DNA of 64,000 nt from a virus. The notes under the pieces are model-generated. The model saw only the letters and a list, made by a program, of their open reading frames with translations. It had not been told where the DNA came from and did no database searches. Every line of letters starts with the position of its first letter. The stretch's first letter is position 1. Of the stretch, positions 3,150 through 25,160 are shown one piece after another. The position numbers and the translations under genes were made by a program. Location of the stretch: the IMG/VR virus record IMGVR_UViG_3300036800_000073, positions 31,584-95,583 of that record; one strand, written 5' to 3'.

Positions 3150-3590
3150 TTAGGATTTGGCTTTGAGGATTGATAATGCCGTGGTATAACGGACGATTCG
3201 CTCGGCGTTCTCCATTGGCAAGGTCTGTGGTCGCATGGGGTCGAGGTTGTCTTGGAGATCGGCGATCTTCACCAGTCTGGCAGCAGCGTTGGTCGCAAGG
3301 CGAGGCAAATAGCTTTGCAGATAACTCTCGTTCTCGCGCCGGGTGAGCGCGTCCACTGCGGCGGCGATGGTGTCGCCGAATTCGGACGCTATATCCTCGA
3401 CGGTGATTGTGCTGTCTTCCACTACATCGTGCAGCAGGGCGATGGCGAATAACTCATCGTTGGCAACGCTCGGCTCACGGGCTATAACGCGCATGGCCAC
3501 GCGCAGGACATGGAGGATGTAGGGACGGCCGGCTTTATCAGTTTGGTCGGCATGAGCGTGGACGGCCATCTCCAATGCTTGTTCGATCAT
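3150..3590 (-). CDS. HD-domain small alarmone hydrolase (SpoT-HD/Mesh1-like)
   Basis: AH..Q.DKAGRPYILH, ALLHDVVED and VKIADLQDN match RelA/SpoT hydrolase motifs. Confidence 0.85.
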   Translation of the reverse strand: MIEQALEMAVHAHADQTDKAGRPYILHVLRVAMRVIAREPSVANDELFAIALLHDVVEDSTITVEDIASEFGDTIAAAVDALTRRENESYLQSYLPRLATNAAARLVKIADLQDNLDPMRPQTLPMENAERIVRYTTALSILKAKS

Positions 3591-4066
3591 GTTGTCTCTC
3601 TTGTGGCTTCGTGCTCCTGCTCCCAGCGTTGGGCGGTGTCGAGGTTTGTTTGTAGAGCATTGAGCAGGCTGGTAGCTTCCGCCTTGGTCATAATGATTGG
3701 GAGTCGCTGCCCGTGAATCGTCTCCCGGAATGTGAGGCAGATGATTGGAGCAGCTTCGCCGCGCTGCTCCGCGCTTACCGTGGCTCTGGCCTGGATGTAC
3801 TGTTCGGTTCGGTTGCTGCGAAACTTAGACCACATTCTCATGCGGTTTCGGCCTCCCCGGTCCGGATAGATGACCTTATAGCGCATGTGGCCGTTGCGCA
3901 CGATCTCGAATTTGCGCCCGTCGCTGAATCCTTTGCGCAGCGAACGATAGATCACCCCGGTCTTGATTCCGAGCTGGCGCGATGCCGCCAGCTTCGAGCC
4001 GGTATTGTCGATAGCGTCGAGGATCGCGGCGAGCATGATGTCACTCAGCAGTGCGGCGGGTTTCAT
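3587..4066 (-). CDS. hypothetical protein with N-terminal Fis-like HTH
   Basis: AIDNTGSKLAASRQLGIKTGVIYRSL resembles an HTH; coupled ORF. Confidence 0.5.
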   Translation of the reverse strand: MKPAALLSDIMLAAILDAIDNTGSKLAASRQLGIKTGVIYRSLRKGFSDGRKFEIVRNGHMRYKVIYPDRGGRNRMRMWSKFRSNRTEQYIQARATVSAEQRGEAAPIICLTFRETIHGQRLPIIMTKAEATSLLNALQTNLDTAQRWEQEHEATRETT

Positions 4067-12826: not shown

Positions 12827-12950
12827 CGGCTTCCCACCACCAGAGGGTAGCAACCCTGAGTCTGCCGTGCGGGTGAAAGGCCCGCGCAATAATCATTATT
12901 CTTCTGAGGCTTATCTCGACCGGAGCCTGATCACAAAAGAGAGTGAGCCG

Positions 12951-14597
12951 ATGCCGAGACGCCGCGCAGCCAAGACGACGAAAAAACCCGGCGCGGTCAC
13001 AGAGTTTCCCAATGCGAACGAAGGGACGCTTCCGGAGATGGGACCGGTCGTAGGCGATTCCTACTCGAATCCCGCAGCGCGATTGGGTGTGGGCACGCCA
13101 AATCTTGCCGAGGCCGGTTACTATCCGCTCATTCGCCTCACTGAAGATTATCCGCTGATCCTGAGCCTCTATCGCAGCTCCTGGATTATCCGGCGCATCG
13201 TCGAGGCTGTGCCCGATGACATGCTGAAGTCGTTCCCGGCGCTGAATACCGAGATCAAGCCCGATCTCATCAAGCGGTTTGAAAAGATCGTGCGCAAGAC
13301 GGGAACACTCAAGAAAATCCGGCAAGCCGCCAAGTGGGGCCGCTTGTTTGGCGGCGCGGGAGCCGTGATCGTGATCGCCGGGCACCACGATCTAGCGGAG
13401 CCGCTCGACCTGGAGCAGGTGGAGCCCGGCTCATACAAGGGCTTGATCACGCTCGACCGCTGGAGCGGCATCATTCCGGGCCCGACGTTGAACGACGATA
13501 TCGAGGACACGGTAAACTTCGGCCTGCCTGCCAACTACAACTGCATCATGGATGCCGGTAGCACCGAAATCCACCATAGCCGCATTTTGCGCTTCATTGG
13601 ACGCGATCTGCCGCAATGGGAAAAACAAGTGGAATTGTATTGGGGAGAGTCCGAAGTCGAGGTCGTCTTCGACGAACTAAAAAAGCGCGACTACTCTTCT
13701 TGGAACATCGTGTCCCTGCTCACCCGAGCGCAGGTGATGTCGATTGAGGAGCCGCAACTTGCCGCGCTGATGTCGGGCATTACCGGAGGCCCGCAGGCGC
13801 ATCAGAACTTCGTTACCCGCATGGAGGCGATGAGCCAACTGCTCAACAGCCAAGGGCTCATGGTGCTGGGCAAGGATGGCAAGCTAAACCAGAACACCTA
13901 TAGCTTTGGCGGTATCTCCGATGTCTACCACGAATTCATGAAGGACTTGGCCGCGGCGTGCGGGATTCCCTATGAGATTCTATTCGGGCGGGAGTCGGGA
14001 TTGGGATCCAATGGCGAGGGTGGGCTGCAAATCTATTACGACATGCTGGAGCAAAAACGCACCAGCGACATAGACCCGGTGATCGATCAGCTCCTGCCAA
14101 TCATTGCCATGAGCGCGTTCGGCGAAGTGCCCGACGATCTCGATCATCATTGGCAACCCGTTCGCACCATGACAGAAAAGGAACGCGCCGAGTTGGCCAA
14201 GTCTACGGCCGATTCCATTGCCGTGTACTTCAATGCCGACCTGATGACCAAGCGCGAAGCCCGCATGGAAATTCAGCAGTCTTCGGTCGCAACAGGGATC
14301 GGCAGCAACTTGACGGATGAGGCCGTCGCAGCTACACCAGACAAATATGCGAGCGAACTTGGCATGGGCGAAATGCAAGGCGAACAAGGGGAGCAAGGGG
14401 AGCAGCCGGGGGAGAATGACGGCGAGGGAACCCCGGACCAAGATCAGCATCTCGAAGCCGGCCCGCAGCGCCCAAATCTCGGAGCGGGCAAAGTTGAAAA
14501 CCCATTCAGCCGCGAAGAGAGCAAAGACGACAATCCATTCAGCCGCGCGAACATGAAGGAACCGAAGGCGAGGCAACATGAAATGCCTGTTCGCTAA
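12951..14597 (+). CDS. portal protein (DUF1073-like)
   Basis: LYRSSWIIRRIVEAVPDDM, WGRLFGG, IHHSRILRF, GIPYEILFG; position after the terminase. Confidence 0.9.
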   Translation: MPRRRAAKTTKKPGAVTEFPNANEGTLPEMGPVVGDSYSNPAARLGVGTPNLAEAGYYPLIRLTEDYPLILSLYRSSWIIRRIVEAVPDDMLKSFPALNTEIKPDLIKRFEKIVRKTGTLKKIRQAAKWGRLFGGAGAVIVIAGHHDLAEPLDLEQVEPGSYKGLITLDRWSGIIPGPTLNDDIEDTVNFGLPANYNCIMDAGSTEIHHSRILRFIGRDLPQWEKQVELYWGESEVEVVFDELKKRDYSSWNIVSLLTRAQVMSIEEPQLAALMSGITGGPQAHQNFVTRMEAMSQLLNSQGLMVLGKDGKLNQNTYSFGGISDVYHEFMKDLAAACGIPYEILFGRESGLGSNGEGGLQIYYDMLEQKRTSDIDPVIDQLLPIIAMSAFGEVPDDLDHHWQPVRTMTEKERAELAKSTADSIAVYFNADLMTKREARMEIQQSSVATGIGSNLTDEAVAATPDKYASELGMGEMQGEQGEQGEQPGENDGEGTPDQDQHLEAGPQRPNLGAGKVENPFSREESKDDNPFSRANMKEPKARQHEMPVR

Positions 14598-15408
14598 CTC
14601 GCTCGATGTGATGCTGGATGGCTGGAGCGAGAGCGCGCATCCGCGCGTATCTAAAGGCAAAGGTGGCGGTCAGTTTACGTCCAAAGGTGGGAGCGGCTCT
14701 GCTCAAGCTGGTGCGGGATCGACCTCCCCCGCCGCTGCAAAGGCAGTTGCTGCTCCCGCAATTCCGCCAGAGATTCACGCGCATGTTGCCGACTATCAGC
14801 GATTGTTTCCTAAGACGTGGAAGCGGTTCAATGACTCCATGAGTTCGCTGGGGTCTGTCACGGGTCGCGTGAAGGCTGCAGATTCGCTGCAAGACAAGCT
14901 GGAGGGCCGCTACAAAGACAATGGCTGGGGTCTGGAGCACATCACCGACACTATCGGGATGCGCTGCACATCGGAAACGCTCGCAGGCGTATATGAGGGA
15001 GTCGCCGCCGTTCAGAAGCAATTCAAGGTGACTACCAATGAAAAAGGCGAGCCCGATGTAGACGACAAAATGATCAAGCCGCAAGGTTTCTACCGAGCGG
15101 TGCATATCATCGTCGATAGTCTGGACAAAACCGGCGTCAAGCGAGCCGAGATCCAGGTACGGACGATCCGCCAGTCCAACGTCGCCGATTGGGGACACGA
15201 CATCGCGTACAAAGGCAAGTTCGCCAAGCACGCCGAAGTGCGGGCCTATGCCAACGCTGTCGGCGACGCGAATTGGGAGTTGGACAACGGACGCGAAGCA
15301 AAAATGCCGGAGCCGCCCGAGATTCTGAAAAAGCATGGGCTGGAGTTCGATCCGGCGAAGACCTACTATTCGCATTGGCTGGCGAAAGAGAAGCCGGAGT
15401 TTCTGTGA
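14578..15408 (+). CDS. RelA/SpoT-type small alarmone synthetase with N-terminal FANSLD/HPR leader
   Basis: GRVK, DTIGMR, GFYRAVH, EIQVRT and HDIAYK synthetase motifs. Confidence 0.85.
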   Translation: MKCLFANSLDVMLDGWSESAHPRVSKGKGGGQFTSKGGSGSAQAGAGSTSPAAAKAVAAPAIPPEIHAHVADYQRLFPKTWKRFNDSMSSLGSVTGRVKAADSLQDKLEGRYKDNGWGLEHITDTIGMRCTSETLAGVYEGVAAVQKQFKVTTNEKGEPDVDDKMIKPQGFYRAVHIIVDSLDKTGVKRAEIQVRTIRQSNVADWGHDIAYKGKFAKHAEVRAYANAVGDANWELDNGREAKMPEPPEILKKHGLEFDPAKTYYSHWLAKEKPEFL

Positions 15409-15620
15409 TGGCCGACAAGTGGGATCGAAGCAACAAAGCGCCAAAATCGCTATTCCGCGTGATCGGCGAAGACTCGTTCGAGATGCCGCCAGCAAACTAT
15501 TGGGTAGGCGATTATAAGACCTACGAAGAGGCGCGCGCTACTGCTCGGAGCTGCGCCAAGCCCTTGAATCCGATGTGCGTTTACGACGACCTTGGGAAGC
15601 TGAAGTTCTTGATCGCATGA
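15408..15620 (+). CDS. small protein coupled to the SAS (candidate immunity protein)
   Basis: TGATG overlap with the SAS stop; 70 aa. Confidence 0.55.
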   Translation: MADKWDRSNKAPKSLFRVIGEDSFEMPPANYWVGDYKTYEEARATARSCAKPLNPMCVYDDLGKLKFLIA

Positions 15621-15785
15621 CGCCGCATGGTAATTTCATCGATGCTCATCTGGTCGCGAATCTGAAATCCGTGCTGATTTGCCGCCGCTGCCTGGCGCTG
15701 ATCTTTCCTGCCCACGCTCAAGCGCATAACGCATGGCACGAGCGGCTGCGCCGCGCTGTGGATGAGACGGAGATGTTGGAATCCA

Positions 15786-16253
15786 ATGAAGCCGACAGTC
15801 TTTGCCAATAGTCTTGATTACTGGTCGGCTTCGCAATGGGCGCTCGATGCGGGAGTGAATGAGACGCGGACGCTGCACGGGCTCACAATCATTATTGAGA
15901 ATCCGCAGTATTCCATGCGCGAAGGCTGGGGTTGGATGTCCGCGGCTCCGGCAGATTACGGCTATATAGCCGGCACGGTGGGAGCTGATGGCGATGAGGT
16001 TGATTGTTACGTCGGGCCAAACCCGCGCAGCCAAAACGTTTTCATTGTGGATCAAAACCGTCGAGGCGGCGCGGAGTTCGATGAACACAAAGTCATGCTC
16101 AATTATGATTCTGCGGCGGACGCCAAGCGGGATTATCTCGATGGCCATACCGAGGGAGCTGATATCTTTCGTTCCCTCACGCCAGTCTCGCTCCGGATGC
16201 TCAAGCTCTGGTTGCGACGCGGCGATATGACTAAGCCCTATAGCGAGGCGTGA
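15786..16253 (+). CDS. phage inorganic pyrophosphatase (InPase) domain protein with FANSLD leader
   Basis: IEN, YGYIAGTVGADGDEVDCYVG and FDEHKVML motifs. Confidence 0.8.
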   Translation: MKPTVFANSLDYWSASQWALDAGVNETRTLHGLTIIIENPQYSMREGWGWMSAAPADYGYIAGTVGADGDEVDCYVGPNPRSQNVFIVDQNRRGGAEFDEHKVMLNYDSAADAKRDYLDGHTEGADIFRSLTPVSLRMLKLWLRRGDMTKPYSEA

Positions 16254-16255
16254 CC

Positions 16256-17581
16256 ATGCGAGCGATCTTCGCCAACTCCTTGGACGTGATGCTCGATGGT
16301 TTTGAAGAATCGGAACATCCGCGAGCGGGCGAAGGTCCGGAGGGCGGACAGTTTGTCGCCAAGGGCGGCTCGGCTCCGGCTGCAAAACATCGCGTGCATA
16401 ACAAGTATGGCGAAGTGGGAGAGAAGTTCACCGCCACGATGGGCGCGAAACACCTGAAACCGGGCGATGTCTTAGCGGAGAATGAGCAAGGGCGGGCGCT
16501 GAAGGTTCTCAGCCTTGGACCAAAGACCTCCACGGGCGGGCAGTGGTACAACTTCGAAGTCGTTAATGCGGAAGCCGAACAGACCGGAGGCAAAGGATCG
16601 AAGTCGGCCCACCTGGTCGCTGCGCCAGCGGATCGCGAACAGTGGCCGGAGCACATCAAGAAGCTGGTGGTTCCGCCTGCATGGACCGGCGTTAAGATTG
16701 CGCAGAATCCCGATGCCGATTTGCTGGTGATCGGAAAAGACAAAGCCGGTCGCGATCAATATGTCTACTCGGAAAAGTTCTCGAAGTCGCAAGCGGCTTT
16801 GAAGTTCGCCCGCATGGAGGGACTGCGCAAGGATCGGCCACTCATCGAGGGCCAGCTCGCAGAGCTTCGCAAGAGCACTGAGCCAGGCAAACGCGATCAT
16901 GCCGACTGCGCCATCCTGGTTATGAAAATGGGCGTTCGCCCCGGCAGCGATACCGATACGAAGGCGAAAGTCAAAGCCTATGGAGCCACGACGCTTGAAG
17001 GCAAGCATGTCGTAGACGAAGGCGGAGCGGTGTTCTTGCGTTTCGTAGCCAAGAAAGGCATCTCGCTGAATTTGCCGGTCGAGGATAAGGCGCTGGCGGC
17101 GACGCTCACCAAGCGAGCGAAGAAAGCGGGCCCCGATGGGCGCATCTTCGGCGACGTTCGCGATGGCTCATTGCTCGACTTCGTGCATGGCCTGGATCAC
17201 GGCGGCTATAAGACGAAAGACTTTCGCACGGCGCTGGCGAATGACTTGGCGGCTCAAGCGATCAAAGGAGTCGCGAGGCCGGTAGACGCGAAGACATACA
17301 AGAAAGCGGTTCGTGAAGTGGCGCTCAAAGTATCGAGCAGGCTTGGCAATACGCCAACGGTTGCGCTCCAGTCCTACATCCATCCCGCTCTCTTCGCGCC
17401 GTGGCAGGGCGCAATGGCCGTAGTTCAGAAAAAGGGTGAGGCTCCGAAAGCCTCATCAGGTAAACCGGTAGAGAAGCTGTCCAGCAAGTCGCCGACTCCG
17501 GCCGCAGCCGGCCTGAATGCCGCGCAAAAAGCCTGGGCGACACGGCGAGCCGCGCGGGAGGCACAGAATGCCGCAGCCTGA
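16256..17581 (+). CDS. DNA topoisomerase IB with FANSLD/HPR leader
   Basis: PPAW, G.DKAGR.QY.Y, and catalytic pentad R (VRPG), K (AKKG), R (KDFRT), N (LGNT), Y (SYIHP). Confidence 0.9.
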   Translation: MRAIFANSLDVMLDGFEESEHPRAGEGPEGGQFVAKGGSAPAAKHRVHNKYGEVGEKFTATMGAKHLKPGDVLAENEQGRALKVLSLGPKTSTGGQWYNFEVVNAEAEQTGGKGSKSAHLVAAPADREQWPEHIKKLVVPPAWTGVKIAQNPDADLLVIGKDKAGRDQYVYSEKFSKSQAALKFARMEGLRKDRPLIEGQLAELRKSTEPGKRDHADCAILVMKMGVRPGSDTDTKAKVKAYGATTLEGKHVVDEGGAVFLRFVAKKGISLNLPVEDKALAATLTKRAKKAGPDGRIFGDVRDGSLLDFVHGLDHGGYKTKDFRTALANDLAAQAIKGVARPVDAKTYKKAVREVALKVSSRLGNTPTVALQSYIHPALFAPWQGAMAVVQKKGEAPKASSGKPVEKLSSKSPTPAAAGLNAAQKAWATRRAAREAQNAAA

Positions 17582-17741
17582 TTCCCTTCCCGATATTCAC
17601 TTTGGCAGCGCCGAGGCAGCATCGCTTGATTGGCGCAAATACAAGGATGATTCTCCCGATGACGATGAAGAGTTGGAGCACACGCCGCCGAGTATCGTCG
17701 CCATGCTCGGATTCGATCCCCGTGAGGCCGAAGACGGATGA
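17568..17741 (+). CDS. small acidic protein coupled to TopIB
   Basis: GGAGG RBS; 57 aa containing DDSPDDDEELEHTPPSIVAMLGFDP. Confidence 0.6.
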   Translation: MPQPDSLPDIHFGSAEAASLDWRKYKDDSPDDDEELEHTPPSIVAMLGFDPREAEDG

Positions 17742-17754
17742 TCGCGAGGTCCAC

Positions 17755-17952
17755 ATGTCTGTCGAGATTGATGCCAACACCATCACCATCAATGGGAAGC
17801 ATCTGGCGGTGAATGTGTTTTATGCCATCATGGACACCAGCTCAAGGCAACGCACCTTGTGGCAGTTCATCGAAAAGGATGGCGAGATTCAAGCTGTCGC
17901 TTATAGCGAGCGGCAAGTGATCTGGATCGATCATGGAGTCAATGAAGACTGA
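17755..17952 (+). CDS. hypothetical protein
   Basis: GAGG RBS; coupled to MuF. Confidence 0.5.
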   Translation: MSVEIDANTITINGKHLAVNVFYAIMDTSSRQRTLWQFIEKDGEIQAVAYSERQVIWIDHGVNED

Positions 17953-18815
17953 TGGCCGAGCCGTTTCATCCGCTGCGGCGCATCGAGATCGCATATCGCA
18001 AAGCTATCTTCGATGCACTGCGCCAAATGGTCGAGATCAGGATCGAGGACGGGAGCGAAGGCCAGTGGCTCGCGGATCTGATCGGGCTCGCGCACAGTAA
18101 AGAGCTGGCGCAGATCGGCGCAGCTATCGCGGCGCGGATGGTGCGCTGGGTCAATGTCGAGAATGCCAAGAGCTGGCGATATGCATCGCGACAGTCGCAA
18201 CGGTCGCAGATGCTTTACCGGCTACTCCAAGAGGAAATGTCGGGCACGGTCGGAACCCGCGTACAGCAAATCGTCCGCGAGAATGCCACACTGATCTCTT
18301 CGATTCCCTATACGGTCGCCGGAGAGCTGACCAACGAGATCATGGCGGCACAGCAGACCGGCGCAAGGCACGAAGTGATCGCGCGCATGATGCGCAACCG
18401 CTTTCCAATTCTGGCCCGTCATCGCGTGGCGCTGATCGCCCGCACGGAGACAAGTAAGGCAAGCACGGCACTGACGCGGGCCAGGTCGGAGGACCTGGGA
18501 CTAAGTTGGTTCGTGTGGAAGACCTCGCATGATGTCCGCGTGCGGCCCGCGCACGAGCACATGGAAGATGTAGTGTGTTCGTGGAACGATTTGCCGTCGC
18601 CCGAGGCATTGGTTCACATTCGCAGCAAGCTGGGGAAATACGCACCAGGAGACGCTCCAAATTGCCGCTGTTATCCGGCTCCGGTGTTGTCGCTAGAAGA
18701 CTTGTATCGCAATGGAAGTGAACGGCGGAAAGTCTACGCCAACGGAAACATTCAACGCATGACCCGCGCGCAGTTTGCGCGGCTGTCAGGAATCGAAGCG
18801 CGGGTCGCCGCATAG
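17952..18815 (+). CDS. MuF (SPP1 gp7-like) minor head protein, short form
   Basis: IARTET, W..S.D.RVRP.H, PG...NCRC. Confidence 0.9.
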   Translation: MAEPFHPLRRIEIAYRKAIFDALRQMVEIRIEDGSEGQWLADLIGLAHSKELAQIGAAIAARMVRWVNVENAKSWRYASRQSQRSQMLYRLLQEEMSGTVGTRVQQIVRENATLISSIPYTVAGELTNEIMAAQQTGARHEVIARMMRNRFPILARHRVALIARTETSKASTALTRARSEDLGLSWFVWKTSHDVRVRPAHEHMEDVVCSWNDLPSPEALVHIRSKLGKYAPGDAPNCRCYPAPVLSLEDLYRNGSERRKVYANGNIQRMTRAQFARLSGIEARVAA

Positions 18816-18825
18816 GAGATGTCGT

Positions 18826-19671
18826 ATGAAACGTTCGACGATAATCGTTAGTTTCGCAGCTCTGGTCTGCGTTCTTGGAATGTCCGGGTTCGCGTATTTT
18901 GGGGGACAGGCCGGGAGCGTTGCCTCCAATCCAGCACCGACCGCAAACGTGATCGCCAAGTACACCACCGCGCAGCAAGGTGTTCCGATCCTCACTCCGT
19001 CGCTATTGTCCGACAATGGAACCACGCTGTCCTACAACGGCACCCCGGTCGCGGGCGGCACCGCATATGCCAACATCTATAGCGCGGGCGGAGGCACTGC
19101 TCAGGCACAGACCATGACTCCCTCTCCTGCGCTGCCGGCTTTGCTGTCTGGCATCGGCGTGATTTGGGCACCGACCGCGGCCAACACCGCTGCTGCTCCA
19201 ACCTTGGCGATCAGCGGCCTGACGGCGAAGCCCATTACCAAATGCGGGACGGCGGCGCTGGTCGCAAACGACATTGTGACAACTGCGCTGGCTGTCGGTT
19301 ATTACGATGGAACGGAATTCCAACTGTTGAATCCGCAGGCTTCCGGCTGTCCTCGCTCTGCCTATGCCACCACTACGAATTGCACCAGTTCGGCGTCTCC
19401 GGCAGTCTGCGCCGCTGCCGCCGCTGGGTCAGTCGTCGTCGCCGCTGCCGATACTACAATTGTCGTGGATACCACAGCGGTTACGGCTAACAGCCAAATT
19501 ATCGTGCAAGAGGATGCCAGCCTAGGTGCCAGGCTGAGTGTGACCTGTAACGCGACAGCAGCCACCGCGCCGCCCGTTGTAACCGCGCGAACCGCCGCAA
19601 CGAGCTTCACCATCACGACCACCGTGCCCATCGCGAATCCGCGCTGCCTCAGTTATTTCATCGTCAACTAA
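18826..19671 (+). CDS. signal-peptide-bearing fibre-like protein
   Basis: N-terminal MKR plus hydrophobic stretch; Thr/Ala-rich; PTLAISGL.AK.I...YDGTEFQLLNP domain; 6 Cys in the predicted mature part. Confidence 0.65.
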   Translation: MKRSTIIVSFAALVCVLGMSGFAYFGGQAGSVASNPAPTANVIAKYTTAQQGVPILTPSLLSDNGTTLSYNGTPVAGGTAYANIYSAGGGTAQAQTMTPSPALPALLSGIGVIWAPTAANTAAAPTLAISGLTAKPITKCGTAALVANDIVTTALAVGYYDGTEFQLLNPQASGCPRSAYATTTNCTSSASPAVCAAAAAGSVVVAAADTTIVVDTTAVTANSQIIVQEDASLGARLSVTCNATAATAPPVVTARTAATSFTITTTVPIANPRCLSYFIVN

Positions 19672-19797: not shown

Positions 19798-20172
19798 ATG
19801 CCGCTAACGAATAAGGGCGAATCGATCTTGCATTCGATGGAAGCCAGCTATCCATCCGAAGAGAAAGCCGAACAGGTGTTCTATGCCAGCCGCAATGCTG
19901 GCACGATAACCGGCGTGGATACCGCGCCAGAAGGAGTTACCGCCATGGAAGGTCATCGCATCGACGATCTTGGCAAGTCCACATTACACGCCGCCGACAG
20001 CGAGGGTCTTCGTGTCAAAAACCTGGGCGAGTCGGTTCTTCATGCTGACCAGCATGGTGCGGTCGATGCAGCCTTTCAGAGTCCGGGCGGCAACTCCGGG
20101 GCGCTGATCTCGCCCGCGCCGGGTTTGGGCATGTCAGCTTATCAAAGCCCCAAGGTTCCGGACGGCAACTAG
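19798..20172 (+). CDS. small head-region protein
   Basis: MPLT.KG..I...M...Y....KAEQVFYAS.N.GTITGVD, plus an internal repeat (LGKSTLHAAD/LGESVLHAD). Confidence 0.6.
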   Translation: MPLTNKGESILHSMEASYPSEEKAEQVFYASRNAGTITGVDTAPEGVTAMEGHRIDDLGKSTLHAADSEGLRVKNLGESVLHADQHGAVDAAFQSPGGNSGALISPAPGLGMSAYQSPKVPDGN

Positions 20173-20257
20173 AGACGACTGACTCGCTATGCCGTAGACG
20201 CCGATCGGGGCGGCGGATGACCGCGCTGGTACGCGGCTGCGCGGCGTAACCCAGGAG

Positions 20258-20695
20258 ATGGCGGGGCGAGAGATGACTGCAATTAGACATGAGGATGGAG
20301 ACGAGTGCCCACTTGATCTCGGCAGAAGGTTTGATGAATTACTCAGCGATCTAGCTGAGAAGCATAGGCAAAACCGTAACGACATCCACCAGCTCCGGAA
20401 TGAGCAGCAGAAACTGGCGCTAAAGCACTCAGATTTGGAGGGCATTCTGGCTCCAATCACTGGTAAGGATGGAAAGAAGGGTGTTTTGGACACTCTCATA
20501 GCAGCCGTGGATAGCTTGAGAAACACGGTGGAGTCACTGAACCTGTCGCGAGCCGAACAGGCTGGCATTGACAAGCAGGAGCAGAAGACCACGAAACGTG
20601 ACCGCTTCTTGATTGGTAGCGGGCTGGCGCTGATCGTGGCGCTGATTCCCTTCCTTGTGGTTCTTATCCAGCGACTATTTCCGGCCGGCAAGTAA
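20258..20695 (+). CDS. coiled-coil protein with C-terminal transmembrane helix (holin/XhlA-like?)
   Basis: Heptad region followed by FLIGSGLALIVALIPFLVVLI. Confidence 0.55.
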   Translation: MAGREMTAIRHEDGDECPLDLGRRFDELLSDLAEKHRQNRNDIHQLRNEQQKLALKHSDLEGILAPITGKDGKKGVLDTLIAAVDSLRNTVESLNLSRAEQAGIDKQEQKTTKRDRFLIGSGLALIVALIPFLVVLIQRLFPAGK

Positions 20696-20720
20696 ACCAT
20701 TCCCGAAGGAGACTTGATTT

Positions 20721-21299
20721 ATGGAGCACATCAATCCAGGCACTTCCGCATTCACGTCTCCCGAGATCGCGCCGTATCGCGCGACCGCTGCGGAGCCCTT
20801 TCGCCAAGAACAGGCGCAGGATGCTTTTCATTCCGCCTACGATGGAGCGCCGATCCCGGTCAGCTCTCACATGCCCATCTTTCGTACCGCGGCCATGGTG
20901 GACGACTTCAACGAGTCGATGACGGATGGAACCAGTGAGGGCGCAAAGAAGGCGTGGGAGTCGCGCGAGCGCGGCGCAACCGAACCGGTGACTGTCGCAA
21001 AGGGAACCGCGCCAGCACCGGGAACGAAGATTCGACCTCCGAGCGATACGGAAAGAGCGGAGGCGCGGGCGGAGTTCCCAGAGGCCGCAGCCAAAGCCGA
21101 TACGAAGCTCTCCGCGCACAAGTGGCCTACCGAAGAAGAAGAGACGGCCAAGCACGCGGAGTATCTCGATCCCAAGCCTGATCCAGACGATCCCGATCAG
21201 GAACACGCGGCGGCACACGCTGCATTCCTCAAGAAACAACGCGGCGAGGGACATAAGGAATACGCGGCGCAGGATGCGCTGCATCGCGGCAAAGAATAA
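20721..21299 (+). CDS. head-region hypothetical protein (DGTSEGA..AW motif)
   Basis: AGGAG RBS; shares motifs with the 21336 and 21564 ORFs. Confidence 0.65.
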   Translation: MEHINPGTSAFTSPEIAPYRATAAEPFRQEQAQDAFHSAYDGAPIPVSSHMPIFRTAAMVDDFNESMTDGTSEGAKKAWESRERGATEPVTVAKGTAPAPGTKIRPPSDTERAEARAEFPEAAAKADTKLSAHKWPTEEEETAKHAEYLDPKPDPDDPDQEHAAAHAAFLKKQRGEGHKEYAAQDALHRGKE

Positions 21300-21335
21300 T
21301 CATTATTACCTCAACCTTTGGAGCGGAGCACCCCG

Positions 21336-21560
21336 ATGGTCCCCATCAACGGCGGCGGCTCTGCGTTCGAAGATGGCAGGCCGCATAGCGAACCTCTGGC
21401 AACCGATTCTGTGAGCGAGCGCCTGGGCCTGCGTCGCTCCGTATTGTCCATGCAGGCGGAACTAGCCGCACTATCGCCCGACGATCCCGAATTGGAAAGC
21501 AAGCGCCGAGCGCTGCAACAGGCATACACCGTGCTGGGGTTTGCCGAGATGGGAGAGTAA
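21336..21560 (+). CDS. head-region hypothetical protein
   Basis: GGAG RBS; N-terminus MVPINGGGSAF. Confidence 0.55.
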   Translation: MVPINGGGSAFEDGRPHSEPLATDSVSERLGLRRSVLSMQAELAALSPDDPELESKRRALQQAYTVLGFAEMGE

Positions 21561-21563
21561 ACC

Positions 21564-21833
21564 ATGCCGATCCATGGAGGCAGTTCCGCATATGACTCAT
21601 CCACGATTCCAGGTGGCGAATCGCCGTATTCGATGTCCATTCCGGAGATGCAGCAAGATGGCACCAGTGAAGGTGCGATGAAAGCGTGGGAGCACCGGCA
21701 ACGAGAGGAACGGCCAACCCTCATGGGCGGTAGACCGATATCGCGAGAGCTGGCCGCGCAGCGCGAGATCGAAGAGGCGAACAGCAAGAGTCACCAGGCC
21801 AACGTGGCCCAGAAATGTGCTCGTAGGGTTTAG
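21564..21833 (+). CDS. head-region hypothetical protein (DGTSEGA..AW motif)
   Basis: N-terminus MPIHGGSSAY; contains QDGTSEGAMKAWEHR. Confidence 0.6.
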   Translation: MPIHGGSSAYDSSTIPGGESPYSMSIPEMQQDGTSEGAMKAWEHRQREERPTLMGGRPISRELAAQREIEEANSKSHQANVAQKCARRV

Positions 21834-21866: not shown

Positions 21867-23477
21867 ATGCCGAAATACTATTCGCTACTCCTCACCACGC
21901 ATATCTCGAAGACGCCGGAAGGTTATCTCATTTGCCGCGACGTTCCGATTTGCAGGAGCGGTTTTCAGTTATATCGCGGCAAAGAGCTGGTCAGGTTCCC
22001 CGGCTATCAGGCAAGTTGGGGCCTCGATCCGGAAACCATGTACAAGGTCCTCCGGCCGAAAGAAGAGGTCCTGCACCCGGACACGATTGCAAGTTTCAAC
22101 GGCAAAACGGTCGTCAACGAACATCCCGAAAAGGATGTTGTCTATATCGACAACGAAGGTGAACTGAATTGCGGTCACGCCCAGGATATCAAGCGTGGCG
22201 AAGACCTACCGCCTACCGAAGAGTTGCCCGAAGGCGCAGTGACGCTCGCTGCTGACTTGCATATCAAAGATCCGGAGTTGGTCGAAAAGATTTATCCCAA
22301 GGATGATCCGGCCAGCGGCGTACGCGACATCAGTTGCGGGTATTCCCTCAAGCTCAAGCGTTTGGCAGACGGAACGCTTGTCATGTATTGCATTCGCGGC
22401 AATCACATTGCCGTTGTAGAGAAAGGCAGAGCCGGAGAAATGATTGCGATTCAGGATTCGGTTCCCATCGAAACGATGGAAATCCTGGTTGCGATCGGAG
22501 ATGCGGCACCGCCCGAAATCAAGGAAAAGAGGACACCGATCATGAGTATTAGAGAGTTGATTTTCGGGCGCGGAGTCAAAGCAATCATGCCAGATGCCAG
22601 CCCGGATGAAGTGGCTTCCATGATGAAGGAAATGGAAGAGCCGGACAAGCGCGATGGAAAGCCAAAGCCTGCGAAGGACTCCATGGAAAAGCAGGACGAA
22701 CTCGCCGCCGAACACCCTCATCGTGTCGCCGCGCACGCTGCGCTTGACCGCTGTCTGGACGCGCGCGGAGCCGACGATCATATGGGCAAGGATGCATTTG
22801 GGAAGCCTGCCCATCTTGACTCCCTGCAACGGGAATTGGCGAAGTTCATTGAGAAAGAAGAGGGTGCCTCTGCCGCTGCGGAGACCGCGAAGGCGGAGCC
22901 TGCCAAGGCCGAGCCCGAGCCGGAGCCCAAGGCCGAGCCGGAAGTGGATGCCGGACCTGCGCCGGAGATCGAGGAGTTGAAAGAGGAAGAACCTCCCAAG
23001 GAAGAAGAAGTCGAGCCGGAACGCGAGCCCGAAGGCGATGCGGACGCGGACGCGGAGCCAAGCGATCCGGAAGATGAAGAAGAGAAGCCCGCCACCGACG
23101 CCGAAGAGGTCAAGGAGCAAGGCGAGAGCGTGCTCAAGCAGGCCAACGATTCGGTACGTAACTATCTCCGAGCAACCAAGCCTCTGGTCGCCAGTATCGT
23201 TGCCAAGCCCAGGTCGAAGTGGACAGTGCCGGAAGCGACCATGGTGGACAGCTACAACAAAGCCGTCCGCAATGTCAACGAGGCTGGCCCTGCATACCGC
23301 GTGTTGGCCAAGCCGAAGGTCCCTTCCAGGATTCCACCACTGGCTAAGGATGCCGAGGCAGCGGCGGCTGCAAACAAGCTCGAAGAGGACAAGATCGCAG
23401 CATTCTACGAAGGCGTGCCGTGGGCGAAGGGCAAAGCAGTTCACGACGCCTATCTCAAAACGAAGGGAAGTAAATAA
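21867..23477 (+). CDS. DUF2213-like prohead protease/scaffold
   Basis: TPEGYLIC.DVPI.RSG.Q.Y, EHP, ISCGY, NHIAVVEKGRAG; acidic scaffold-like C-terminus. Confidence 0.9.
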   Translation: MPKYYSLLLTTHISKTPEGYLICRDVPICRSGFQLYRGKELVRFPGYQASWGLDPETMYKVLRPKEEVLHPDTIASFNGKTVVNEHPEKDVVYIDNEGELNCGHAQDIKRGEDLPPTEELPEGAVTLAADLHIKDPELVEKIYPKDDPASGVRDISCGYSLKLKRLADGTLVMYCIRGNHIAVVEKGRAGEMIAIQDSVPIETMEILVAIGDAAPPEIKEKRTPIMSIRELIFGRGVKAIMPDASPDEVASMMKEMEEPDKRDGKPKPAKDSMEKQDELAAEHPHRVAAHAALDRCLDARGADDHMGKDAFGKPAHLDSLQRELAKFIEKEEGASAAAETAKAEPAKAEPEPEPKAEPEVDAGPAPEIEELKEEEPPKEEEVEPEREPEGDADADAEPSDPEDEEEKPATDAEEVKEQGESVLKQANDSVRNYLRATKPLVASIVAKPRSKWTVPEATMVDSYNKAVRNVNEAGPAYRVLAKPKVPSRIPPLAKDAEAAAAANKLEEDKIAAFYEGVPWAKGKAVHDAYLKTKGSK

Positions 23478-23479
23478 CC

Positions 23480-24040
23480 ATGCCCGCAACAGTTATCCCC
23501 GTAAAGGGGCTCTACCTTGGCTTCGTAGGGAACGTCAGTAACGAGGGCTATTCCCTTCGTAAGCCGCGCCTGGTCCAAGCCGCCGATCCGAATCCTATCG
23601 CATTCGGCGAAACTTTGGTCCTGAACACCAACAACACCTACTCCAGCGTCAAGAGCTTCGTGGCCGGCGCTGGCATCGTCACAGCGGCTCTGGCCATGGG
23701 CATCGCAACCTCGAATGTGAATATCAATCCGACCTATGCCTCTGGCGGTTCCGGAAATGTGGCGACGGTCGGCGGCCAATTCGTTCAGGGTGCGATCTGT
23801 GACGCGCTGGTGCAAGGGACGCTCAACGTCTATTGCGCCAATGGCACGCCGACTGCTGGCGGCGCGGTATATTGCCGCGTGGCACTGAATGGTGCCATCC
23901 CCAATGGCGTCGTCGGCGGTCTGGAAGCCGTAGCCGATGGCGGCAATACGGTCCTGCTCACCAACTTCAAGTGGAGCACGGGCTATCTCGAAACCGATGG
24001 AAGCAGCCAGCTCACCATCCTCACCAGGACCATCGCCTAA
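23480..24040 (+). CDS. capsid decoration/cement protein
   Basis: Sits between scaffold and MCP; GTPTAGGAVYCRV. Confidence 0.75.
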   Translation: MPATVIPVKGLYLGFVGNVSNEGYSLRKPRLVQAADPNPIAFGETLVLNTNNTYSSVKSFVAGAGIVTAALAMGIATSNVNINPTYASGGSGNVATVGGQFVQGAICDALVQGTLNVYCANGTPTAGGAVYCRVALNGAIPNGVVGGLEAVADGGNTVLLTNFKWSTGYLETDGSSQLTILTRTIA

Positions 24041-24069
24041 TCGCAGGCAATCAGTGGCCGCACTTCCCT

Positions 24070-24100
24070 GAAAGGGCTCCTTCGGGAGCCTTTTCTATTT
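24070..24100 (+). terminator. hairpin with C(UUCG)G loop and U-rich tail
   Basis: AAAGGGCTCC-TTCG-GGAGCCTTTT followed by CTATTT. Confidence 0.6.
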
Positions 24101-24134
24101 GGAACCCGCAGCTACACAAAGGAGAAACAAAGCA

Positions 24135-25160
24135 ATGACTCCCAAAGAGTATCAGCAGTCTCTTGCTGCCCTGCGAAGTGGTCAAGTGCTGTCGGATGCC
24201 GCGCAAGCGGCCACCGGCCAGACATTCTTGATGGCAGAGTTGAGCAAGCTCGATCCGGTGGTGCGTTTGCCATTGGAGAACTTCACCTATCTGCGGGATA
24301 TTCCGCTCGACAAGGGCGGCGGCTGGGTGATGAATCACATCGCACACAACGTTGACTTCCGCGGCCCACGCGATGCCGGGGCCGGATCGCAGACCAACGA
24401 TTCGCGCGTGATCGAATACAACGTCAACCAGGATACCTGGCCGGTGTACCCCTACCAGGTGCGTGTCCGCATTCCCATCGTGGAATCGCTGCGGATGGCA
24501 CAGGTAGGGCGTTCGCCGCAGGATCTGCTCGACAAGGGCGTGCGTGTCGATTATTCAAAGACGCTCGACACTCGTACTTATCAAGGCTTCCAAGGCGGCG
24601 TCAATGGTGGAACGAGCTATTATGGCCTGATCGGAAATCCGGCCGTCACCAATACCGCGCTGCCGGCGACGGGCACGGGCGGAACCCTGACGTGGAGCAC
24701 CAAGACCGCTGTGGCGATCTTGGGCGACTTCAATTTCATGGCTCTCACCATCTGGAATGCATCGGGAAATGCGCCGGGCGCGATGCCCACGCGATTCCTG
24801 GTGCCGCCCACGCAATGGGTCCTGCTCACGCAGCCCATGGCTGTGGTGGGCGGGCCTTCCGGATATGCGTCGATCCTTGACTACATCCAGAAGAATTATC
24901 TCGGCGCGGCCTTCGGCATCGTGCCGGAGATTTATCCGCTTCCGGAGTGGCTCGAAGGCGCGGGGCCCGGTCCGACACAGCTCATCATGGCCTACAAGTA
25001 CGACAAGGACTGCCTGTCGCTGGGCATTCCGCAGGAGATCACGCGTTTTGGCGCTCCGCCATCCATCGTGTCGGGCTGTTTCGAGTTCCTCTATTTGGCC
25101 AACATTGGAGTCGTCAAGGTCAACCGGCCTCAGACGGTCGGCGGCTTCTACGGCTGCTGA
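24135..25160 (+). CDS. major capsid protein (DUF2184-like)
   Basis: Strong RBS (AAAGGAG); FL..EL..LDP, YGLIGNP, SILDYIQKN; position in the head module. Confidence 0.85.
   Translation: MTPKEYQQSLAALRSGQVLSDAAQAATGQTFLMAELSKLDPVVRLPLENFTYLRDIPLDKGGGWVMNHIAHNVDFRGPRDAGAGSQTNDSRVIEYNVNQDTWPVYPYQVRVRIPIVESLRMAQVGRSPQDLLDKGVRVDYSKTLDTRTYQGFQGGVNGGTSYYGLIGNPAVTNTALPATGTGGTLTWSTKTAVAILGDFNFMALTIWNASGNAPGAMPTRFLVPPTQWVLLTQPMAVVGGPSGYASILDYIQKNYLGAAFGIVPEIYPLPEWLEGAGPGPTQLIMAYKYDKDCLSLGIPQEITRFGAPPSIVSGCFEFLYLANIGVVKVNRPQTVGGFYGC

Follow-up and report, generated by a model that had tools for sequence, protein, structure and literature searches.

The 64,000-nucleotide stretch of DNA analysed here (the window) comprises bases 31584–95583 of a 95,583-bp IMG/VR virus record, IMGVR_UViG_3300036800_000073, which CheckV rates as complete. 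On its plus strand lies a phage head module that opens with an Sf6-type small terminase, a large terminase, a 200-aa open reading frame (ORF) and the portal, and continues with a RelA/SpoT-like gene (RelA/SpoT homologue, RSH), a 70-aa ORF, an inorganic pyrophosphatase (InPase), a type IB topoisomerase (TopoIB), two small ORFs and a short MuF protein. A set of small proteins, a DUF2213 protein, an XM1-gp53-like minor capsid protein and the major capsid protein follow 3' of MuF (Table 1). The subject of this work is the N-terminal leader, containing the peptide FANSLD, with which RSH, InPase and TopoIB begin. The original prediction, made from the letters of the window, had described these enzymes as cargo encoded by stand-alone genes beside a short, unfused MuF. 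This description holds, since the 287-aa MuF contains PF04233 only and each cargo protein has a single catalytic domain.

A six-frame translation of the window contains FANSLD exactly three times; our arithmetic gives a chance expectation of about 0.002 for one given hexapeptide in 128,000 codon positions. All three copies are located at residues 5–11 of plus-strand ORFs between the portal (PF06381) and MuF (PF04233), at the N-termini of RSH, InPase and TopoIB and nowhere else, so that the claim of a common start peptide on three unrelated enzymes is borne out. A relaxed pattern, [FILV][AG]N[SGA][LV][DE], applied to all ORF spans of 70 aa or more in the complete 95,583-bp record, returned the same three matches and no others.

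The leaders of RSH and TopoIB share 23 of their first 36 residues and 11 of the corresponding 36 codons, with a proportion of synonymous differences (pS) of 0.77 and of non-synonymous differences (pN) of 0.30. Because synonymous sites are saturated while 23 of 36 residues remain identical, selection acts on the leader peptide and not on the DNA, as had been proposed. Conservation is not due to a dual-coding overlap with the portal gene, an explanation that we rejected because such an overlap exists for the first cassette alone, the InPase and TopoIB leaders overlapping nothing.

An alignment of eleven leaders from this phage and its relatives reveals two parts. The first, which we term the pre-tag, consists of Met, three or four residues and (F/I)-(A/G)-N-(S/G/A)-L-(D/E), often followed by an aromatic residue; besides M-x3-FANSLD, it occurs as IANGLE(D/N)W, FANALD and FANSLE. 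The second part runs from hydrophobic-x-(L/V)-D through an aromatic residue, (D/E)-E-S and x-HPR (sometimes KR) to a Gly-containing turn, G-x-(F/W), KGG and a linker rich in Gly, Ser and Ala. Its consensus is (F/W)-(D/E)-E-S-x-HPR...G-x-F-x-x-KGG, and we refer to it as the junction tag. As originally noted, the longer common part with HPR and GGQF..KGG is present on RSH and TopoIB and missing from InPase, which has the pre-tag and only the beginning of the second part before its domain starts. Correspondingly, an aromatic-acidic-x-x-HPR (or KR)...G-x-(F/W) element 30–45 residues ahead of the catalytic domain is found in RSH and TopoIB and not in InPase.

The proposal of an LD|G/A cleavage site directly after FANSLD did not survive this alignment. 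The residue following the pre-tag is V, Y, G, D, N or Q, and since this position is not conserved the site is unsupported. An LD that recurs just before the aromatic residue is, from the aligned leaders, simply part of the junction tag.

Table 1. Positions of the head-module genes and leaders in the window
Feature	Position	Strand	Match or remark
Portal protein (Phage_portal_3 / DUF1073)	12951..14597	+	Pfam PF06381, E 1e-88
RSH leader, 38 aa: pre-tag M-x3-FANSLD (14578-14607), then HPR-type junction tag ending GGQF..KGG	14578..14691	+	
RelA/SpoT-like small alarmone-synthetase homologue, 276 aa, first cargo cassette after portal	14578..15408	+	PF04607, E 2.7e-14, residues 96-213
Small 70-aa gene, ATG overlapping RSH stop codon	15408..15620	+	No Pfam or PHROG match
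InPase leader, 13 aa, MKPTVFANSLDYW: pre-tag, HPR half absent	15786..15824	+	
Polyvalent-protein-type inorganic pyrophosphatase (InPase), 155 aa	15786..16253	+	PF18823, E 8e-33
TopoIB leader, 38 aa: pre-tag M-x3-FANSLD (16256-16285), then HPR junction tag	16256..16369	+	
Type IB DNA topoisomerase, 441 aa, C-terminal KAW-x-TRR motif	16256..17581	+	PF01028, PF21338
Small acidic ORF, 74 aa, overlapping TopoIB 3' end	17517..17741	+	No Pfam match; tblastn against closest relative (G001): 65% identity over 49 aa
Small ORF, 65 aa, directly before MuF	17755..17952	+	No Pfam match; tblastn against G001: 48% identity over 58 aa
MuF / SPP1 gp7-like head morphogenesis protein, short, unfused, 287 aa	17952..18815	+	PF04233, E 2.8e-14; orthologues in related loci
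DUF2213 protein with long charged tail; candidate processing enzyme and internal scaffold	21867..23477	+	PF09979, E 1.9e-34; phrog_12864, phrog_530 'head maturation protease'
XM1-gp53-like minor capsid protein (23480-24040) and major capsid protein (24099-25160), end of head module	23480..25160	+	PF23982, PF09950

A search with the portal identified 20 relatives in IMG/VR. The closest, designated G001 (104 kb with terminal repeats, 72% portal identity), has five tagged genes between portal and MuF. Three of these, encoding an ADP-ribosyltransferase (ART, PF03496), a 306-aa protein without a family match and a zeta-toxin kinase (Zeta_toxin, PF06414), carry the pre-tag IANGLEDW, and the remaining two, InPase and TopoIB, carry FANSLD. 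The slot directly after the portal is variable, being occupied by RSH in the window and by ART, the unknown protein and the zeta toxin in G001. A backbone conserved in both phages consists of the 70-aa gene, InPase, TopoIB and the two small ORFs. Phages with 61–65% portal identity have InPase alone in the portal–MuF slot, starting with FANALD or FANSLE. In G001 we also observed a relic leader (..AIFSNSLDVMLDEE, then two stops and no start codon; L023, about 3780–3830) directly 5' of the second tagged cassette, which looks like the scar of a cassette insertion.

These comparisons agree with two expectations attached to the original prediction, namely that diverse enzyme domains would stand behind the tag, always in head modules, and that the tag would be kept in homologues. 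ART, the zeta-toxin kinase and one unknown protein in G001 all lie between portal and MuF, and the leader is modular across six enzyme families. The tag is retained by all four RSH proteins, by the five closest TopoIB proteins and by the InPase orthologues of the phages with 61–65% portal identity. The RSH family has only these four members in a collection of 5.8 billion proteins. One of them, 55% identical to the window RSH, has a pre-tag of the IANGLE type, while the RSH and TopoIB leaders of the window agree at 12 of 15 positions. The type of leader thus goes with the phage and not with the enzyme.

DNA-pattern scans of IMG/VR covered IANGLE(D/N)W and FANSL(D/E) with a TCN serine codon. The former pattern gave G001 as its only real match, the four others being chance matches in other frames, and M-x3-FANS(TCN)L(D/E) gave 42 matches, of which only those in G001 and the L008 contig are real. 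We found the pre-tag only in a small clade of uncultured phages. In a sister lineage (L014, 5781–8468 and 11031–11492; also L016, L011, L012 and L021), an 895-aa ART-containing protein and the InPase of one phage both begin with another peptide, MF(S/E)LPPV. The 895-aa protein has a GTG start behind a strong Shine-Dalgarno sequence, and a GGPG-x-F..YDGGPKPY element occupies the place of the HPR tag. In the InPase alignment, leaders of the FANSLD and MF(S/E)LPPV types have Phe in the same position. Head-protein type, judged from the portal C-terminus and the MuF N-terminus, showed no clean correlation with pre-tag type, the lineages being too few for any conclusion.

The distribution of the second leader part is much wider. 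Searching 1.84 billion representative proteins with a leader profile (E up to 0.001) yielded 132 matches. Only five match from profile position 1, all at their own N-terminus: three G001 proteins, a 315-aa protein and an RSH orthologue. The remaining 127 range in length from 96 to 4660 residues, almost all over 400; they match only from about position 10 on and usually contain several internal copies of the tag. A pattern count covering the first 60 proteins showed as many as 14 copies in one protein, each preceding a new segment; in the giant polyvalent proteins (600–4660 aa) the tag is repeated 2–14 times. A Pfam scan of nine profile matches gave the combinations MuF with a weak ParB-like domain, InPase with MuF, DUF2213 with TopoIB, and InPase with ART; two further proteins had DUF6496 only, two had no match and one was the RSH orthologue. 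The HPR half is a general junction tag of phage cargo modules and not specific to FANSLD. Covalent fusions have it too, so that recruitment of a module to the capsid there cannot be its task. The proposal that FANSLD is a modular packaging address stands as regards modularity; the HPR...GGQF half is not part of a FANSLD-specific address, being widespread in polyvalent proteins and covalent fusions. Literature text searches found no description of the HPR junction motif, and the paper on polyvalent proteins (PMC5512222) contains neither it nor any leader.

The same relationship is apparent for TopoIB, in which both the predicted catalytic core (PF01028, 48.1 bits) and the bacterial N-terminal domain (PF21338, 29.7 bits) score above their cut-offs. 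We found 423 homologues, and fusions and pre-tags were counted among the 120 listed. Nine of these are fused with a portal, three with MuF and others with zeta toxin, ART or NUDIX domains; two DUF2213–TopoIB fusions from the leader-profile search (P0013 and P0054) are joined through the HPR tag. The portal–TopoIB fusions likewise have the HPR tag where the two proteins join, some 35 residues ahead of the TopoIB motif WPxHI. A strict pattern finds the tag in 50 of 107 TopoIB homologues, a median of 43 residues upstream, with 26 copies within the first 45 residues and 24 deeper. In contrast to this broad occurrence, FANSL(D/E) is found on the five nearest homologues and on none of the other ~115 listed. 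A word-index search with the 45-aa TopoIB leader, a method insensitive for so short a tag, returned six candidates, two of them significant.

For InPase we chose the start at 15786 (MKPTVF...) over an upstream ATG at 15762 because orthologues start there. The Pfam InPase model begins C-terminal to the pre-tag. In an AlphaFold2 (AF2) model based on ten orthologues, residues 1–13 have a predicted local distance difference test score (pLDDT) below 50 and no secondary structure, and the core scores above 90. PHROG matches to InPase lie inside minor head, virion and DarB-like giant proteins. A homologue is present in 457 GenBank phages, the best matches being Pseudomonas Pbunaviruses, in which the C-terminus of the portal is 42% identical to the window InPase. 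In phage 14-1, InPase forms the C-terminus of ORF17, a 765-aa 'minor head protein', and this gene is followed by MuF, small ORFs, a head maturation protease, a virion protein and the major head protein, which is the order in the window. The alignment begins at Met-1 of the window protein and at an internal Met of 14-1 ORF17 (M-K-P-T-V-F-A-N-S and M-E-P-S-V-F-S-S-S, respectively), and the portal–InPase junction of Pantoea phage PA1 is similar (K-P-S-V). In the cryo-electron microscopy structure of Pbunavirus E217 the 765-aa protein is the portal, gp19, of which only residues 97–528 were modelled and whose C-terminal barrel projects into the head (PMC10329688). Because of these two features, the InPase part of E217 gp19 should be disordered inside the capsid, unless it is cleaved off.

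The RSH protein matches PF04607 with 53.8 bits against a cut-off of 27, which places it among predicted small alarmone synthetases or RSH proteins, and has weak matches to RelQ, RelP and YwaC structures. Its AF2 model, built from four sequences, is poor (mean pLDDT 55.9), with residues 1–67 below 50. In both the window (14557–14597) and G001 (L023, 2318–2409), the first cargo gene starts before the portal gene ends, in the +1 frame and with an overlap of 20 nt. Ahead of the cargo start this frame stays open for seven codons in the window and 24 in G001; a portal–cargo frameshift fusion product is conceivable. The early region, which is oppositely transcribed, encodes on the minus strand (3150–3590) a 146-aa HD_4/HD-domain protein of the SpoT/Mesh1-like hydrolase type, a possible counterpart of the head-module alarmone synthetase. 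The sole homologue of the 70-aa gene, 47% identical, is located 3' of the zeta-toxin gene in G001, and other related loci lack it. It seems to belong to the backbone of the cargo array and not to be an antitoxin specific to RSH.

Several further features of the head module deserve mention. The portal ORF is open from a GTG at 12867, and the ATG at 12951 agrees with the starts of homologues. The small ORF at 17517–17741 contains an MLGFDP motif that is also present just before the HPR tag in the DUF2213-fusion polyvalent protein P0054. The protein directly 3' of MuF (18775–19671; 13131–13544 in L005 and 12939–13451 in L008) has a signal-peptide-like N-terminus, which is unusual in a head module. 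Several small ORFs 5' of the DUF2213 protease (19798–21833) share a similar start peptide, I-(N/H)-(P/G)-G-x-S-A-(F/Y), and the same position holds related small proteins in L005, L007, L008 and L014. The motif KAW-x-(T/S/H)-R-(R/E/Q) is found at the end of TopoIB (17528–17545), in two small head-module proteins (20949–20966 and 21681–21698) and in G001 cargo proteins. We considered KAW-x-TRR as a head tag and rejected it, since a WGR/ATP-dependent DNA ligase of the early region, beyond the window (L089, G000:C1:19882-21255, minus strand), has it at its end as well; the motif is thus not head-specific, and may be a DNA- or partner-binding tail.

Relatives of the portal also exist in prokaryote genomes, where a first portal search found none and a portal alignment recovered sequences of 38–51% identity in Acidobacteria, Limnocylindrales/Chloroflexota and Clostridia. 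Those from Acidobacteria include L077 (Acidobacteria bacterium AB60, VANK01000006.1), L075, L076 and L080, one of them on a 361-kb contig. Together with the 57% G+C content of the window, they suggest an acidobacterial host for the wider group.

Phage proteins with the same domain repertoire are already known as polyvalent proteins (Iyer, Burroughs, Anand, de Souza and Aravind 2017, PMC5512222), which contain RelA/SpoT, InPase and ART domains, with zeta toxin and TopoIB present in homologues. RelA/SpoT and InPase are listed there as phage-type domains, and polyvalent proteins share with the window a head or packaging gene context, their phage-type repertoire standing among late, virion or packaging genes just as PF04607 and PF18823 stand between portal and MuF here. 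The HPR-type tag before modules is likewise common to both. However, a polyvalent protein is defined by at least two effector domains per polypeptide, and each protein of the window has one catalytic domain and is thus a solo module. The window phage further differs in its separate single-domain genes, its unfused MuF and portal, and an N-terminal pre-tag unseen at internal junctions. A comparable arrangement is that of the MuF polymorphic toxins of temperate phages (Jamet et al. 2017, PMC5576092), likewise toxin-type enzymes in a packaging module beside portal and terminase. There the toxin is a C-terminal extension of MuF, whereas the 287-aa MuF of the window has none.

Short N-terminal peptides that direct proteins into the procapsid have been described in phage T4, in which the capsid targeting sequence (CTS) of internal protein IPIII suffices for foreign proteins, and in phage P1, where the critical residues of the DarB packaging signal lie at about positions 6–10 (PMC9024508). 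A common N-terminal peptide of ~10 residues on unrelated proteins is matched here by analogy only, and positions 6–10 are where FANSLD is located. There is no sequence similarity to either signal, and the head protease belongs to a different family, DUF2213 in the present case. Packaging and cleavage have been demonstrated for T4 and P1 (PMC9024508) and are predictions for the present leader. The Dar proteins of P1 have no consensus N-terminus (PMC9024508), in contrast to the proteins of the window phage. The Pbunavirus portal–InPase fusion (14-1 ORF17, E217 gp19; PMC10329688) resembles the window in head gene order and in a junction that aligns with the window leader from Met-1. In that system, however, InPase is joined to the portal C-terminus, the junction reads M-E-P-S-V-F-S-S-S and not FANSLD, and there are no further cargo genes.

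From its sequence, conservation and gene context, we regard the leader as a real, selected and modular cargo leader with a predicted function. Carriage of the three enzymes in the head is plausible because TopoIB and InPase modules are fused to the portal, MuF or the DUF2213 protease in other phages, and it is from these fused homologues and from gene position that we infer packaging. We put the probability that the peptide serves as a cargo leader for the phage head at roughly 55%, and are less confident of a docking role for the pre-tag specifically.

Under this hypothesis, the three genes would be stand-alone versions of modules that elsewhere are strung together in polyvalent head proteins or fused to portal, MuF or DUF2213 protease. 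Each module would keep a leader of ~40 residues, unstructured in the one confident model (InPase residues 1–13). The HPR half and the Gly/Ser-rich stretch would most likely form a flexible tether, a site at which a head protease frees the module, or both, with the DUF2213 protease as the candidate enzyme for release. The pre-tag matches at N-termini only, is unstructured, is common to unrelated enzymes of one phage and differs between orthologues across phages. For these reasons it may substitute for the missing covalent link, docking the free enzyme to a portal-proximal component of the procapsid. The docked enzyme would then be enclosed in the head and leave with the DNA; docking, processing and injection, like packaging, are predicted steps. 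A more general form of this model would be a two-part, exchangeable address made of a clade-specific docking peptide (FANSLD, IANGLE, or MF(S/E)LPPV in the sister lineage) and a universal HPR tether or release tag, by which any enzyme so tagged is loaded and delivered. We advance this generalization tentatively and think it more doubtful than head loading itself.

Several observations weigh against a head-loading leader. No receptor for the pre-tag was identified. Two pre-tag types coexist in the genome of G001, where the InPase tag begins at residue 13 and not at residue 5. The cargo array is absent from the portal relatives of 38–51% identity in genomes of Acidobacteria, Chloroflexota and Clostridia. 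All clade members are uncultured, and a tblastn search of 50,697 GenBank phage records with TopoIB gave no match, as did a blastn search of GenBank phages with the module. A pre-tag-like sequence lies inside the covalent portal–InPase fusions of 14-1 and PA1, where docking is not needed; a processing site or an evolutionary relic would account for it no less well than an address. Finally, TopoIB and InPase linked to the portal might work there while DNA is packaged or ejected, and not be injected effectors at all.

The covalent fusions lead to a different explanation, in which the whole leader, FANSLD included, is an inherited junction or processing element, recognized by DUF2213 or a mere linker, that addresses nothing, and the free proteins enter the head in some other way or not at all. 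The alignment of the InPase leader with the internal Pbunavirus junction, Met included, speaks for this reading. So do the similar KPSV junction of PA1, the HPR half at covalent junctions, and the fusion of DUF2213, annotated as a head maturation protease, to tagged modules. The internal junctions of the 127 polyvalent matches fit less well, as they match the profile from about position 10 only, and the FANSL(D/E) part occurs at true N-termini alone. A protease site five residues from the N-terminus of a free protein has no obvious purpose, and the pre-tag follows the phage and not the enzyme. On balance, we consider an inherited junction the main rival to a head-loading leader, although an unlikely one.

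If the enzymes were not packaged and acted late in the producing cell, the leader might serve auto-inhibition, oligomerization or the binding of a phage or host factor such as the 70-aa protein. Toxin-type enzymes, as RSH, zeta toxin and ART are, may have to be held in check, translation of a small gene is coupled to that of RSH, and an HD_4 hydrolase is encoded in the early region. This leaves unexplained that the genes stand strictly between portal and MuF in every phage examined and that covalent fusions join the same modules to three different internal head proteins; moreover, the 70-aa protein adjoins unrelated enzymes in two phages and is missing from lineages that keep the pre-tag. Such a role in the producing cell appears improbable to us. 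Alternatively, the conserved 5' ends could be homology blocks through which cargo genes exchange cassettes or undergo gene conversion, as polymorphic toxin loci do, and the peptide would have little function of its own. The variable slot after the portal, the G001 relic without a start codon just 5' of the second cassette, and the greater likeness of leaders within a genome than between orthologues are in keeping with this. However, most synonymous sites differ between the leaders of the window, with only 11 of 36 codons identical. This leaves no long identical DNA for homologous recombination and points to selection on the peptide. In addition, the pre-tag is kept in lineages with a single cargo gene (L005–L008), and the drift of a neutral peptide is not observed there. 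We therefore regard recombination as the least probable of these explanations, and very improbable in itself.

To our knowledge, head-loading signals of phage proteins have been defined experimentally only in T4 and P1. The leader described here adds a consensus that heads six or more enzyme families and has natural variants, and the modules concerned exist both fused and unfused, so that the selection of injected enzymes for packaging, and their release, becomes directly testable. The N-terminal pre-tag can be separated from the widespread HPR junction tag, and the portal–InPase junction of Pseudomonas Pbunaviruses links an uncultured phage clade, possibly of Acidobacteria, to a tractable model. 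If the proposed role is correct, phages other than T4 and P1 would possess a natural and programmable system for loading proteins, which would also account for the splitting and renewed fusion of polyvalent proteins.

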